Positions 14,108 to 17,904 of a DNA stretch of 24,000 bases are shown here, one piece after another. Source of the DNA: Prochlorococcus marinus str. MIT 9211 (GTDB lineage: Bacteria; Cyanobacteriota; Cyanobacteriia; PCC-6307; Cyanobiaceae); NCBI RefSeq assembly GCF_000018585.1, contig NC_009976.1, positions 343,982-367,981 on the forward strand, given 5' to 3'. How positions within the stretch are numbered: the stretch's first letter is position 1; each line of letters begins with the position of its first letter. The notes beneath the pieces were generated by a model. The model had not been told where the DNA came from, ran no database searches, and worked only from the letters and a program-made list of their open reading frames with translations. The position numbers and the translations under genes are program-made.

Positions 14108-14233
14108 TTAGGTTCTCTCACTCCATTCACATTGATTTGCATATCTTTCATGATTTACCCCATTGGGACTTAGATATTGCTTCTTTCTAATGAGTGCTTG
14201 CCAGCCTTTGCCGCTTCTTCGAATGGTTGCCAT
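14108..14233 (-). pseudogene. truncated tyrosine-integrase gene (41 codons)
   Basis: The first 61 nt (14173..14233) are identical to the 5' end of the intact int at 17541..17601 (MATIRRSGKGWQALIRKKQY). It then diverges (LSPNGVNHERYANQCEWSERT*) and stops. Confidence 0.75.
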
Positions 14234-14284
14234 TTCTTGAATTGCATCAGGTCAGATGCATCAAGCAAGAATGATCAACAGAGC

Positions 14285-14316
14285 AAAAGTGGACTAAAAA
14301 GTGGACGTCCACTTTC
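14285..14316. promoter_or_regulatory. candidate recombinase/regulator binding cluster: AAAAGTGGAC x2 direct + inverted copy forming palindrome AAGTGGAC|GTCCACTT
   Basis: Copies at 14285..14294 and 14297..14306 (direct) and 14307..14316 (inverted). The perfect 16-bp palindrome is at 14299..14314. It lies between tRNA-Thr and the int start. Confidence 0.5.
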
Positions 14317-14373
14317 TGTCTTTAAGAACCTCTGGTGCCTGAGAGGCTTTCTTTTAGAAGAGATCAGGGCTCA

Positions 14374-14445
14374 TGCCCTCGTCGGGACTTGAACCCGAGA
14401 CCTCTCCCTTACCAAGGGAGTGCTCTACCGCTGAGCTACAAGGGC
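14374..14445 (-). tRNA. tRNA-Thr (anticodon GGT), second complete copy
   Basis: 72 nt, identical to 17742..17813. Acceptor GCCCTTG/CGAGGGC, anticodon arm CTCCC-TTGGTAA-GGGAG, T-arm TCGGG-TTCAAGT-CCCGA. Confidence 0.9.
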
Positions 14446-14910
14446 TTGTGGAGAGGTGGGCCGGGTTTAGACCGCCTCTATAGCCTTGTCAGACAGCTCT
14501 GTGCTTGATACTGAGCCAACTTAGATCAAATCTTGAGTAAGACCAAATCTTTTTTAGGGAGTGCTGGGATCTGTCTTAAGTCCACTTTTATGTGGTTTTA
14601 GGCCACTGGATTGAGTGTGGGTTTTGTTGCTGAGATCGCTTTGATTGCAGTGCTTCTCGCTAACCCCACTATTATACAGGGGAAGAGAAGAGAGCGAGGT
14701 TGCACGTATATAGGAGGAGAGGAGATAAAAACTTAAGACAACAATTTCCTTTACTGATGTTCCGGTGAGCGAAGCGAACGAACATCACGAAAGCACTGTC
14801 TGTATCTCCCAAACACACAAACCCCAACACTCAATATCTAAAAGTTCAACCCTGATGATCTGAATGTCCCCTCATTGGACATTCCGTATCATCCCTGTTG
14901 AGACTGTATG

Positions 14911-14950
14911 GATAGATAGATAGATAGATAGTTAGATAGTTAGTTAATTA
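14911..14950. repeat. tetranucleotide microsatellite (GATA)5 degenerating into GTTA/GATA/GTTA/GTTA/ATTA
   Basis: gatagatagatagatagatagttagatagttagttaatta, ending 12 nt upstream of the ATG at 14963. Confidence 0.9.
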
Positions 14951-14962
14951 ATTCATAGTCAA

Positions 14963-15293
14963 ATGAGAACTCCAAAGCATCTACCAAAAATCAATACACA
15001 GACAGCTCCAATACCAGACTCAGCTAAACCCTTAACTCCCGAAAGAGCTAAGGAAATTATTGATGAGGTTTGGAGTAAGAGGAACTGTTGGGAATGAGGA
15101 AGAGAGAGAAGTTTGGAAAGAAATGAAAGGGCACTTTGAGGAAAACTTTGAGGAAAAAATCAAAGCAGTCATCAAAGCGAAGGGATCAGAAGAAGTAGTC
15201 ATCCCTCCGGAGGAAGAAGAGTTCAAAAAGGCACTTGAAGTATTGGAGCAAGGAAAGAAAGAAGAAAGTGAGACGAATATTGATATCTGGTAA
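14963..15293 (+). pseudogene. acidic island-associated protein, copy 2, split by a frameshift
   Basis: Frame 1 (14963..15097) encodes MRTPKHLPKINTQTAPIPDSAKPLTPERAKEIIDEVWSKRNCWE*. The second frame (ATG 15063..15293) encodes the conserved C-terminus RGTVGNEEEREVWKEMKGHFEENFEEK...NIDIW. Copy 1 reads through the equivalent point in one frame (KFVKEVLDLQVRGTVGNEEE). Confidence 0.6.
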
Positions 15294-15396
15294 GACTTTC
15301 TGAAATGAGATTACCTATAACCTAAAACTATTAGTCGTAACTATTTAAAGAACTAATTATGAGTGATAAGATAAAGCCAACAACAATAAAAAACCT

Positions 15397-16521
15397 TTGG
15401 AAATTCATTTTCCATCAGCTGATCAAATATATAAAGAAACATATACGAAATTAAAAGAAATAGAAGGATGGAAAGAATTCAATAATAAATGGGATTATGC
15501 CATTACAGAATATATCTCTGAGAATGGTCTACAAGGTTGGAGCCGTGAAACTTTAATAGTGCTTTGGTTTGATTACCAAATAAATAATCTCACTGAACTA
15601 TTTAAGGATGTGCATCCAAAGGAACCTGAGTATAATGATAATGAGGAGATTACAGTTCTTAATGTTCAACAAGTCAAAGAGGAAAGAGATAAGTATATTG
15701 AGAAGCTTAAAGACTGGAGTAAAAAATTAATAGAGATAGCTCCAATAGCTCTAGAAGAATTGCCAAAATGCGAAATATATGAAATTAGTATAATAGGCAT
15801 TCCAAGAATTGAATATTCTGGGGAGGATCCAGCGAAATTCATGAATATTGCTTATTCATATAAAGACGAAAAAAAGTGGGATTTAGCTATCGAATATTTA
15901 AACAAATCATATGATGCTTTCTTTAACTCTCCTCTTAAATATCCACTGAATTACTCTATATATGATTTTGTAAGATTACCTTTATATATGCATCATGCTG
16001 GTTACTTAGAGGAGTCTTGGGAGACATTTCAAAGATTTTTAGATGGTGATTTTCCAATTAGAATCCCAAAGAAAAATGGCCTTGAAAATGACATCATCAA
16101 ATCATGGGAGCGTAGGGTTATTTTTTCTAAGATGAAAAGTTGTTATATAAAAGAAAAGAAATATCGAGAAGCTCTTGTTTGTAGATGTCTTGACCTTTAC
16201 TTTGATATTGCGGGCTTATTTCTACTGGTAAGATTAGAGAAAGAAATTGGTAAAAGTGCGTATGATTATGAAGACTTTTCATTTCCTCTTCATTATATAA
16301 ATACACATAATTTTTACCCAGATCCAATAATATATGGTTTTAAAGAATGCTCTAAGAAATCAACGCTGGTGAAAAATCTTAAAACAAGAGCTCGAATGGC
16401 AAAGCTTAATGATGAAGTTGAGGTAATTGCTGAATTGATATCCGATGCAATTAAAATTTTGCCAGACTATAAATTAGGTGAGGAAATTATCATTAATAAC
16501 CTAAAAAAATTTCCTAAATAA
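15397..16521 (+). CDS. hypothetical protein (374 aa, very AT-rich cargo gene)
   Basis: Long clean ORF whose track start is TTG at 15397. An ATG at 15359 would join this frame if the A6 run at 15389..15394 were A7. No catalytic motif recognised. Helical-repeat-like segments are present (KKWDLAIEYLNKSYDAF; KKYREALVCRCLDLYFD). Confidence 0.6.
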   Translation: MEIHFPSADQIYKETYTKLKEIEGWKEFNNKWDYAITEYISENGLQGWSRETLIVLWFDYQINNLTELFKDVHPKEPEYNDNEEITVLNVQQVKEERDKYIEKLKDWSKKLIEIAPIALEELPKCEIYEISIIGIPRIEYSGEDPAKFMNIAYSYKDEKKWDLAIEYLNKSYDAFFNSPLKYPLNYSIYDFVRLPLYMHHAGYLEESWETFQRFLDGDFPIRIPKKNGLENDIIKSWERRVIFSKMKSCYIKEKKYREALVCRCLDLYFDIAGLFLLVRLEKEIGKSAYDYEDFSFPLHYINTHNFYPDPIIYGFKECSKKSTLVKNLKTRARMAKLNDEVEVIAELISDAIKILPDYKLGEEIIINNLKKFPK

Positions 16522-16617
16522 GTTCCATCACGTCTACAAAAAAAATAATTTCAAGGAAGGGATTTCAAATCTCCAGGGCCTATTTTTGAGCTTCTAGAAA
16601 TGAAAAATAAGAACACC

Positions 16618-17601
16618 TCATTTGCCCCCATACCCCAGTTGATAATGGCTATAGCGCATCAACATTCGTAGATCTTTATGCCCACTAATTGCTGATATTT
16701 GGAGGGCATTCATACCTTCAGCCCACATCTTGCTGATGGCGATATGGCGCAGGTCATGAAATCGGAGTTGATTCAATCCAGCAGCTTTTCTCGCTCGATC
16801 AAATCCGTGACGTGCAGAACCAGAGCTCAGTCCAATGATGTGTTGTTGCTCTTTTGGATATTGAGCGAGGAGCTCAACGGCTTGTGGAGATAGTGGTACT
16901 AAGCGTTCACTCCTTTGCATTCCCTGGGCGGCGCAATCTTTTCTTGTTAGGCAAACAAGTCTTAGATCGAGGTCTAAATCATCCCATTTCATTGAAAGTA
17001 GTTCAGAGCGTCGCATTCCAGTTGCTAGTGCCAGCTGCGTTAAGCGCAGATGATTGGGATTTTTGGCTTGAGCTAATTGCTGGAGTAAATCTTGCTCTTG
17101 TTGTTTGGTGAGATGAGGAATTCTGGCGTCATGGGTCCCTCTGACTTTGAGTTCCCGTGCAGGGTTGCTCTTGAGCAGGCATCCTTGTTCATCTTTGGCC
17201 CAATCGAGCAGAACCCGCAAGATCCTGAGTTCTCTCATCACTGTGTTGGGTTTGACTTTGAGCAGTCGTTCGTCTCTCCAAAGAGCAAAATGCCGGATTG
17301 ACATTTCACTAAGCAGAACACCTCCCATCCAGCTATTAGCCATTGCTCTTAAGGGATATTGTTCGTTATGACCACTGCGGTGTTTTTGCAGTGGCCCATC
17401 GATATACAGGTCAATAGCCTCTTTGAGAATTTGCGGTGGCGGCTGGTCTAATTGGGTTGGCCTTTTGAGAGACCCTTCAACAGCATTCGCCCACAACTGC
17501 GCTTGGCTTTTTGAGCTAAATGTTTTGGCTTTTGGTCCTTGATATTGCTTCTTTCTAATGAGTGCTTGCCAGCCTTTGCCGCTTCTTCGAATGGTTGCCA
17601 T
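16618..17601 (-). CDS. int: tyrosine recombinase / phage-type integrase
   Basis: 327 aa. Catalytic signature is readable: ATGMRRSELLSMKWDDL (Arg), RFHDLRH (His-x-x-Arg), ISGH, and MRYSHY (Tyr nucleophile). Lies immediately downstream of tRNA-Thr on the same strand. Confidence 0.9.
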   Translation of the reverse strand: MATIRRSGKGWQALIRKKQYQGPKAKTFSSKSQAQLWANAVEGSLKRPTQLDQPPPQILKEAIDLYIDGPLQKHRSGHNEQYPLRAMANSWMGGVLLSEMSIRHFALWRDERLLKVKPNTVMRELRILRVLLDWAKDEQGCLLKSNPARELKVRGTHDARIPHLTKQQEQDLLQQLAQAKNPNHLRLTQLALATGMRRSELLSMKWDDLDLDLRLVCLTRKDCAAQGMQRSERLVPLSPQAVELLAQYPKEQQHIIGLSSGSARHGFDRARKAAGLNQLRFHDLRHIAISKMWAEGMNALQISAISGHKDLRMLMRYSHYQLGYGGK

Positions 17602-17652
17602 TTCTTGAATTGCATCAGGTCAGATGCATCAAGCAAGAATGATCAACAGAGC

Positions 17653-17684
17653 AAAAGTGGACTAAAAAGTGGACGTCCACTTTC
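17653..17684. promoter_or_regulatory. AAAAGTGGAC repeat/palindrome cluster in the int leader (copy B)
   Basis: Same sequence as 14285..14316. There is also a TGCATCA-N7-TGCATCA direct repeat at 17611..17631, just upstream of the int start codon. Confidence 0.5.
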
Positions 17685-17741
17685 TGTCTTTAAGAACCTC
17701 TGGTGCCTGAGAGGCTTTCTTTTAGAAGAGATCAGGGCTCA

Positions 17742-17813
17742 TGCCCTCGTCGGGACTTGAACCCGAGACCTCTCCCTTACCAAGGGAGTGCTCTACCGCT
17801 GAGCTACAAGGGC
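17742..17813 (-). tRNA. tRNA-Thr (anticodon GGT)
   Basis: 72-nt cloverleaf as described for 14374..14445. Confidence 0.92.
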
Positions 17814-17822
17814 TTGTGGAGG

Positions 17823-17904
17823 TGGGCCGGGTTGGATTTGAACCAACGTAGGCAGAGCCAGCGGATTTACAGTCCGCCCCCATTAACCACTCGGGCACCG
17901 ACCC
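17823..17904 (-). tRNA. tRNA-Tyr (anticodon GTA)
   Basis: 82 nt. Acceptor GGGTCGG/CCGGCCC, anticodon arm GCGGA-CTGTAAA-TCCGC, long variable arm, T-arm GTTGG-TTCAAAT-CCAAC. Confidence 0.92.

Follow-up and report, generated by a model that had tools for sequence, protein, structure and literature searches.

Within a 24,000-nt stretch of the Prochlorococcus marinus MIT 9211 genome (hereafter, the window), which belongs to a finished isolate genome of 1,688,963 bp, an intact integrase gene lies behind a pair of tRNA genes at one edge of a genomic island. The complete tRNA-Tyr(GTA) gene occupies positions 17823 to 17904 of the minus strand according to Rfam (17821 to 17904 according to ARAGORN). 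It is followed on that strand by a 9-nt spacer, CCTCCACAA (17814 to 17822), and by a tRNA-Thr(GGT) gene (17742 to 17813; ARAGORN and Rfam), the proximal one of two copies and the one still joined to tRNA-Tyr. Next on the minus strand come the leader of the integrase gene int (17602 to 17741) and int itself (16618 to 17601), which encodes an intact tyrosine recombinase of 327 aa (PF00589, E = 2e-26; phrog_1 integrase, E = 5.5e-53). Its start lies 140 nt from tRNA-Thr, and its transcription runs into the element, the inward-facing orientation that is characteristic of the Prochlorococcus elements known as tycheposons. Farther inward, a cargo open reading frame (ORF) of 374 aa (15397 to 16521) and a 5'-truncated fragment of a DUF7326 gene (15060 to 15293; Pfam and self-BLAST) are read from the plus strand, and a conserved terminus (14468 to 14690, minus strand) closes the unit at its distal end. 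Beyond this terminus, and again on the minus strand, is the distal attachment (att) junction at 14446 to 14467, made up of an 11-nt fragment of the 3' end of tRNA-Tyr (14457 to 14467) and an 11-nt spacer with an extra AG (14446 to 14456). A second tRNA-Thr(GGT) gene follows (14374 to 14445; ARAGORN and Rfam), intact but displaced from tRNA-Tyr and its promoter. Behind this distal copy, MAFFT and self-BLAST identified a stump (14173 to 14373, minus strand) that consists of another leader (14234 to 14373) and int codons 1 to 20 (14173 to 14233). We consider it likely that this locus is a Tyr/Thr island in which a 3.37-kb element has inserted at the extreme 3' end of tRNA-Tyr, beside an older remnant of the same family, bringing a tRNA-Thr(GGT) gene of its own. 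The element would then comprise the conserved terminus as its P arm, the truncated DUF7326 gene, the 374-aa ORF, int, the leader as its P' arm, and its own tRNA-Thr(GGT) with spacer.

The two ends of this arrangement form a direct repeat. Repeat search, MAFFT alignment, and self-BLAST agree on copies at 14173 to 14467 (295 nt) and 17541 to 17833 (293 nt), which differ solely by an AG indel within their spacers (distal, CCTCTCCACAA; proximal, CCTCCACAA). An earlier note on this DNA, based on the letters alone, had given exactly these coordinates and this single difference, and its account of the contents also proved correct: each copy holds the first 61 nt of int (which tblastn finds again at 14233 to 14173), the leader, a whole tRNA-Thr(GGT), and 11 nt of tRNA-Tyr. 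These 11 nt (AACCCGGCCCA; 17823 to 17833, minus strand) are the end of tRNA-Tyr and form the outer end of the proximal copy. The locus therefore has the classical pattern of a targeted tRNA gene, with an intact tRNA-Tyr at 17823 to 17904, its last 11 nt again at 14457 to 14467, and int between them. Within the repeat, a perfect centre of 281 nt is flanked by the AG indel, 13 nt from one edge; past the left edge, weak similarity continues for about 10 nt (8 of 13 nt, with a 1-nt indel). Given its length and a self-BLAST E-value of 3e-149, a chance origin of the repeat pair is impossible.

Independent reads support both copies. Three contigs of a separate Logan assembly (run SRR9430080) are 100% identical to the window and end at 14202, 17570, and 17792, in each case 30 nt into a repeat copy (k - 1 in a graph with k = 31). 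Three of the four junctions between unique and repeated sequence are present directly in the reads; the exception is the junction between the arm and the tRNA-Tyr fragment (14467/14468), whose contig was not retrieved. The three junctions rule out a simple assembly duplication of one true copy, the artefact that the earlier note had named as fatal to its reading.

The earlier note had also taken the whole repeat for an unusually long att core. It is not one giant att but a composite, in which about 92 to 97 bp, made up of the last 11 to 15 nt of tRNA-Tyr, the spacer, and a whole tRNA-Thr(GGT), are the att block of an element family and 201 bp are homology to a resident remnant. This 201-bp portion, which covers the leader and the opening 61 nt of int, was left as a stump by an earlier related element, so that the int-bearing unit does adjoin such a stump, as had been proposed. 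Because the displaced resident tRNA-Thr is still joined to its leader and to 61 nt of int, the repeat measures 293/295 bp and not 92 to 97 bp.

The att block and arms in related elements

To place the window element among its relatives, we used comparison loci labelled L001 to L020. The integrase has 1,890 relatives at E <= 1e-20, and every organism name among the best 120 of these 1,890 is Prochlorococcus. A genome scan with the integrase led to eight Prochlorococcus single-cell genomes, six of which appear in the genome table of a preprint on genomic islands by Hackl et al. as members of clades LLI, LLII, and LLVII (bioRxiv 10.1101/2020.12.28.424599). The order tRNA-Tyr, short spacer, tRNA-Thr, and then an integrase or integrase fragment recurs in 8/8. 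The clearest case is L005, from the single amplified genome (SAG) AG-409-L21, where an 8.4-kb element has an exact 97-nt direct repeat at its two ends. This repeat runs from ATCCAACCCGGCCCA of tRNA-Tyr through the spacer to the last base of tRNA-Thr, and the element between the copies carries cargo different from that of the window (a PD-(D/E)XK nuclease, a SIMPL protein, and others). L008 has the same layout, and in both loci the distal tRNA-Thr is followed by an identical sequence outside the element, TCGTCGGAGGGACAT, probably the flank native to the site. The layout of L005 and L008 makes a partial tRNA-Tyr plus a whole tRNA-Thr a property of the family and not an oddity of the window. The window, L001, L002, L005, and L008 each have tRNA-Thr duplicated over its full length, and in these four comparison loci the two repeat copies stand on single contigs. 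The proximal tRNA-Thr of the window is 100% identical to the distal copy and to the tRNA-Thr of 12 other loci. In L008 (SAG AG-402-G19), the displaced distal tRNA-Thr (11118 to 11189) has the anticodon CGT and differs at two more positions, at one of which the change disrupts the anticodon stem; this redundant copy is either decaying or changing identity.

The elements also share their ends. The 220 to 310 nt that abut the tRNA-Tyr fragment are 79 to 88% identical between the window (14468 to 14690) and the distal ends of L001, L002, L003, L005, and L008. These six elements have unrelated cargo, and the core genes of their hosts are only 65 to 78% identical at these loci. In one metagenome scan, the near-invariant block of this arm (14543 to 14574) also recovered six short metagenome contigs, which are junction variants. 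With the exact repeat of L005 and an arm that abuts a tRNA-Tyr fragment in six elements, the suggestion that the element re-supplies a complete tRNA-Thr and has its outer edge in tRNA-Tyr is borne out.

One 9-mer, AAAGTGGAC, is confined to these ends. It occurs seven times in the window against 0.21 expected, and every occurrence lies in an arm: one in the distal terminus (14580 to 14588) and three in each of the two leader copies (17654 to 17683 next to int, 14286 to 14315 in the stump). Two of the three leader motifs form a palindrome, and the motifs are conserved in relatives that include L002, L006, L014, and L018. Their placement makes them candidate arm-type sites for the integrase and points to a putative lambda-type attP with a whole tRNA gene between its core and its P' arm. 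Arm repeats bound by P2-type integrases have the consensus tgTGGaCa (PMC3448106), to which AAAGTGGAC bears a resemblance only. One junction variant departs from the common order. In L014 (positions 1 to 1071 of metagenome contig MPLT02090765.1), the arm adjoins not a tRNA-Tyr fragment but the complete gene, behind which stand the spacer, tRNA-Thr, the leader, and an int that breaks off at about codon 70; the last 30 nt of the contig nearly repeat positions 117 to 146. This contig is either a variant in which both tRNA genes are whole, a tandem mini-unit, or a chimeric assembly.

Occupancy and history of the site

Occupancy was compared across 13 loci. An int gene or int remnant is present at the site in 13/13, and no naive, int-free Tyr-Thr site was found among them: L018, L019, and L020 keep the leader and an int fragment directly after tRNA-Thr. 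In the 1.75-Mb genome that contains L018 (CP138965.1), the site has no int gene, only Tyr-spacer-Thr-leader and int nt 1 to 56 (L018:9532-9820). This stump is 91% identical to that of the window, with flanking core genes at 65 to 75%. In L019 (5033 to 5797), int is truncated at about nt 551; in L020 (2476 to 2974), it is internally deleted. Second copies are found as well, with a leader and int start beyond the distal tRNA-Thr in L002 and a partial tRNA-Thr, leader, and int start in L007. From these alignments, occupancy is polymorphic among relatives, ranging from full elements to truncated int genes and the stump of L018, and remnants are the rule; this is the variation that the earlier note had asked to see. 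The note had further suggested, from a repeat edge inside int, that two elements had recombined with each other. Such recombination is possible but not required, since truncated int genes are common and the L018 stump ends at int nt 56. We considered a truncation hot spot at int nt 56 to 61, shared by the window and L018; other copies break at about nt 239, 465, and 551, and the agreement was treated as coincidence. In L006 (10380 to 10560; SAG AG-363-P19), int is cut at about codon 155, exactly where its coding sequence equals AAGTCCAACCC, and is fused to the tRNA-Tyr fragment TCCAACCCGGCCCA, after which comes a heavily decayed tRNA-Thr. This fusion is a deletion between the distal att and an att-like site inside int, which are identical over 8 to 10 nt. 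An att-like site within an element's own int is limited to the L005/L006 type (TCCAACCC); the window int is without one.

The simplest history for MIT 9211, as read from these comparisons, would begin with a resident remnant at the site, similar to that in L018. A new member of the family would then have inserted at the 3' end of tRNA-Tyr by means of an attP that contains the last 6 to 15 nt of tRNA-Tyr, the spacer, and a complete tRNA-Thr. Integration would have separated the resident tRNA-Thr (14374 to 14445) from its promoter, and the element's copy (17742 to 17813) would have taken over. The element may be mobile at present. It would follow from this preferred model that element-borne copies have repeatedly replaced the expressed tRNA-Thr(GGT) in low-light Prochlorococcus. 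Several observations weigh against the model. Neither an excised circle nor an empty attB was observed for MIT 9211; a viral-contig collection contained no int relative and no att pattern, and no excised circle was found there or among the six metagenome contigs. The leader and int 5' end are 100% identical between the two copies in the window, whereas independent elements differ by 7 to 12% there, so that an older, independent remnant requires either the same element lineage or later gene conversion. The same integrated structure would result from a crossover at any point between the 3' end of tRNA-Tyr and the 3' end of tRNA-Thr. Finally, the arm before a complete tRNA-Tyr in L014 does not fit a fixed boundary at a tRNA-Tyr fragment, unless that contig is rearranged or chimeric.

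The perfect identity bears most directly on the age of the stump. It is possible that the stump derives from the same lineage, that it arose by tandem duplication and deletion, or that an older stump was homogenised by gene conversion. Tandem duplication is a serious contender, if a less probable one than insertion beside an older remnant: the same element would have integrated twice, through re-integration of an excised or replicated circle or through unequal sister exchange at the att sites, and a deletion would then have run from int codon 21 of the second copy through its distal att into older island DNA. It accounts well for 100% identity over 281 nt, where different family elements are 88 to 93% identical, and tandem-repeat junctions have been found by polymerase chain reaction (PCR) in cultures (Hackl et al., bioRxiv 10.1101/2020.12.28.424599). 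However, it needs two events, and both stump-only and truncated-int sites are common elsewhere as resident states. In addition, the weak homology past the left edge (8/13 nt) and the indel near the right edge suggest a converted older repeat rather than a fresh deletion. A perfect centre with imperfect edges thus mildly favours gene conversion, an argument that was made post hoc.

A second question is where within the block the strands are exchanged. The part of the arms derived from tRNA-Tyr varies among elements, being TCCAACCCGGCCCA in one form, TCTAAACCCGGCCCA in the window, and TCTCAAAAGGCCCA in L001, L008, and L013. From GGCCCA on, the elements have the start of the spacer (CCT) and the entire tRNA-Thr in common, next to arms that diverge; the shared block of L005 and L008 ends exactly at the 3' end of tRNA-Thr. 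The switch from element-specific to shared sequence at GGCCCA+CCT would mark the left limit of the crossover region. On the usual logic of tRNA targeting, by which an element brings with it all sequence between the crossover and the end of the restored gene, exchange would take place at the extreme 3' end of tRNA-Tyr or at the start of the spacer. Polymorphisms in the spacer gave no clean partition that would mark the element-derived copy, and inspection of the Tyr/Thr junction by eye showed no convincing core of dyad symmetry.

Expression of the tRNA pair offers a reason for such a block. The two genes are 9 to 11 nt apart, and at all loci an extended -10-like box, TGnTAATGT (CTGGTAATGTC; in the window TGATATTCT, CTGATATTCTC), lies 12 to 20 nt upstream of tRNA-Tyr. 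The box was read by eye in the window (17905 to 17960) and in its equivalents in L001 to L008; it was absent from the output of a consensus scan. Probably this box alone serves the pair as promoter. A 9-nt spacer is too short to hold a promoter, which suggests that tRNA-Thr is co-transcribed with tRNA-Tyr. If tRNA-Thr depends on the promoter of tRNA-Tyr in this way, an insertion between the two genes must bring a tRNA-Thr of its own.

Alternatively, the exchange could fall inside tRNA-Thr, in which case the tRNA-Tyr fragment, the spacer, and the 5' half of tRNA-Thr would be flanking homology only and the expressed tRNA-Thr would be derived from the host. The anticodon and T arms of tRNA-Thr offer symmetric sites of the kind that many integrases reportedly use (Williams 2002), and the integrated structure is the same for an exchange anywhere in the 97-nt block. 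Moreover, tRNA-Thr(GGT) is the island tRNA given by Hackl et al. (bioRxiv 10.1101/2020.12.28.424599). We nevertheless think this placement unlikely. Nothing would then keep the element's sequence upstream of the crossover from decaying, yet 5/6 arms have an invariant spacer and tRNA-Thr 5' half, next to arm sequence that differs by 12 to 21%, and divergence appears only upstream of GGCCCA. The end of the block at the 3' end of tRNA-Thr in L005 and L008 is, likewise, the classic signature of sequence that extends from the crossover to the end of the restored gene. Placing the exchange at the end of tRNA-Tyr would correct the idea that the island tRNA, tRNA-Thr, is itself the split target.

An equally doubtful proposal, though one that would tie several observations together, is that the leader and the int 5' stump are maintained as a homology pad of about 290 bp, through which elements are captured and lost independently of the integrase by RecA-type recombination or gene conversion. 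If true, it would explain the 281-nt perfect centre with imperfect edges in MIT 9211, stumps that are about 91% identical across clades whose core genes are at about 70%, and the int remnant beside tRNA-Thr in every genome examined.

We regard a phasing artefact as very improbable. Here the chromosome would carry only a stump, as in L018, and the 3.37-kb unit would exist as a free circle. In either case the assembly graph is identical, because two paths enter such a repeat and two leave it; the Logan contigs stop at all the repeat edges examined, and only the AG indel, 13 nt from one edge, tells the copies apart. The window, however, comes from a finished isolate genome, which would normally have been closed with paired clones longer than such a repeat. 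The integrated two-copy form also stands on single contigs in L001, L002, L005, and L008. Circular intermediates of excised elements have been detected by PCR in cultures (Hackl et al., bioRxiv 10.1101/2020.12.28.424599), a point in favour of a free circle here. Ordinary segmental duplication or replication slippage with no site-specific recombination has nothing in its favour beyond the direct repeat itself; the intact integrase at one end speaks against it, and it is effectively refuted by the arm that abuts a tRNA-Tyr 3' fragment in many independent elements of differing cargo, and by the exact tRNA-bounded repeat in L005.

Cargo and surrounding island DNA

The 3.37-kb unit contains int, the 374-aa orphan ORF, and the DUF7326 fragment alone. 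Pfam, PHROGs, and PADLOC detected no hallmark or signature gene in it besides int (rep, reg, xis, the major capsid protein gene, terS, and the like). The 374-aa cargo protein is a near-orphan with four distant homologues; it matches no Pfam family above threshold, no PHROG, and no PADLOC entry, and it is not homologous to the ORF at the same position in L005. A microsatellite-like run of (GATA)n/(TAGT)n, gatagatagatagatagatagttagatagttagttaattaatt, at 14908 to 14950 separates the P arm from the DUF7326 fragment.

Older island DNA follows beyond the stump (11383 to 14172), as delimited by Pfam, self-BLAST, and comparison with relatives. It includes a full-length DUF7326 gene (11476 to 11850, plus strand), to which the truncated copy is closely related: by self-BLAST, 15074 to 15300 is 92% identical at the nucleotide level to 11631 to 11857. 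Just upstream of the full-length gene, at 11383 to 11449, is a non-coding block of about 65 nt that is common to the elements of L002, L003, and L005. This block is about 90% conserved with 45 invariant nt, and its counterparts lie at L005:17677-17739, L002:15252-15317, and L003:4851-4914, about 0.5 kb inside the distal end of each element; within it, TTCCAAACCGGCTGG is similar to TCCAACCCGGCCCA, the att sequence at the 3' end of tRNA-Tyr. The full-length DUF7326 gene and the 65-nt block mark a still older related element. The same region encodes a 199-aa ORF (12825 to 13424, minus strand) and a cytochrome b559-like protein of 100 aa (12409 to 12711, minus strand; PF00283, E = 3.6e-9) with a transmembrane segment. 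The latter gene is kept beside the Tyr-Thr site in L018 at 76% amino acid identity and, from this conservation, appears to be a long-standing island resident and not recent cargo. Nearer the left edge, a GLTT-repeat/DUF3721 protein is encoded at 9956 to 10387 (plus strand), within a region (9649 to 10387) of long overlapping ORFs on both strands. Its homologues occur in the same island in L006 and L007, and its neighbours are a HupE/UreJ transporter (10581 to 11210) and an unannotated 133-aa ORF (9150 to 9551).

Core genes frame the island. The window starts with tRNA-Ala, 23S rRNA, and 5S rRNA (Rfam), followed by fpg, an unannotated 355-aa ORF, a LysM protein, an aldehyde dehydrogenase, and a VTT/DedA-like protein (8314 to 9054, plus strand; Pfam, and tblastn to L004, L007, and L018). 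On the right are aroQ, which encodes a type II dehydroquinase (18012 to 18458, plus strand), and then miaE, cobI, and der. In other Prochlorococcus genomes, the same site is flanked by the VTT-domain gene and aroQ, which places the island at about 9055 to 17741, anchored on the Tyr-Thr tRNA pair; the earlier identification of a tRNA-anchored Prochlorococcus island was sound.

Comparison with known integrative elements

Islands of this kind have been described in the genus. Hackl et al. reported integrase elements at seven tRNA genes, including tRNA-Thr(GGT), with tandem elements split by tRNA copies and with fragmented integrases, and their genome set includes MIT 9211, an isolate of clade LLIII, and related SAGs (bioRxiv 10.1101/2020.12.28.424599). 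In their model, newcomers push older elements deeper into the island, and decaying remnants build islands. They define tycheposons by hallmark genes for mobility, replication, regulation, or packaging together with an inward-facing site-specific integrase, in most cases from a tyrosine-recombinase lineage peculiar to tycheposons, and their Supplementary Table 5 gives the tycheposon att as a partial tRNA duplication of about 40 bp (bioRxiv 10.1101/2020.12.28.424599). The window element resembles these strict tycheposons in its tandem arrangement and in the decaying remnants that build the island. It differs in that it carries no hallmark genes and duplicates a whole tRNA gene plus part of a second. 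Of the link to tycheposons drawn in the earlier note, the island site and the pattern of tandem elements and remnants stand, and the inward-facing int agrees with the definition, whereas strict membership is doubtful.

A closer counterpart is found among the cryptic elements. Supplementary Table 5 splits the Thr-associated integrases into YR_T1 (tycheposon) and YR_T2 and YR_2 (cryptic), and it lists YR_T2 with 67 elements, classed as cryptic_B, that lack signature genes and have a full-length tRNA duplication (bioRxiv 10.1101/2020.12.28.424599). Like these, the window element belongs to the same genus, lies in a tRNA-Thr(GGT) island with int beside the tRNA, has int as its sole signature gene, and duplicates a full-length tRNA. 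A difference is that the table annotates the group as "large," and the window element measures 3.4 kb. The window element fits YR_T2/cryptic_B better than it fits strict tycheposons, an assignment made by description only. Since a Thr-associated cryptic group with full-length tRNA duplication was already tabulated, much of the unusualness that had been claimed for this locus is known. The text and table of Hackl et al. do not mention a tRNA-Tyr 3' fragment at the outer edge, conserved arms, or AAAGTGGAC, all of which are features of the window element.

Phage HP1, a P2-like phage of the proteobacterium Haemophilus influenzae, exchanges strands in the anticodon region of its target. Work by Hauser and Scocca in 1990 and 1992 is said to have found a block of identity that extends from inside tRNA-Leu through a complete downstream tRNA, so that the tRNA operon is restored. 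If so, HP1 and the window element share an att block that starts in one tRNA gene and spans the whole of the next, and in both the integrating DNA would re-supply a co-transcribed tRNA. HP1 is a phage with an exchange in the anticodon region, whereas the MIT 9211 element is a 3.4-kb non-viral unit whose left exchange limit is placed at the extreme 3' end of tRNA-Tyr. The target of HP1 is tRNA-Leu, and the long common cores of related phages keep the tRNA intact (PMC3448106). An island of the Islander catalogue splits its target gene and restores it with sequence of its own, and the displaced fragment marks the far end (PMC4383910). The window element shares with these islands and those of Williams (2002) a tyrosine integrase and a target gene that is split and restored. 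In contrast to the Islander pattern, the displaced fragment here includes a whole second tRNA gene, and the repeat is lengthened by homology to a resident remnant.

Elements of this kind, and their duplication of a whole tRNA, were already known from Prochlorococcus islands, and the locus does not reveal a new kind of system. It provides a clean example, in a finished genome, of island growth at tRNA genes, with a live-looking minimal element beside its decaying predecessor, and exact junctions are now defined for excision assays in a cultured strain, MIT 9211. What it adds to the known systems is incremental: an outer att edge at the 3' end of tRNA-Tyr, conserved arms that carry AAAGTGGAC, and an integrase or its remnant at 13/13 loci.

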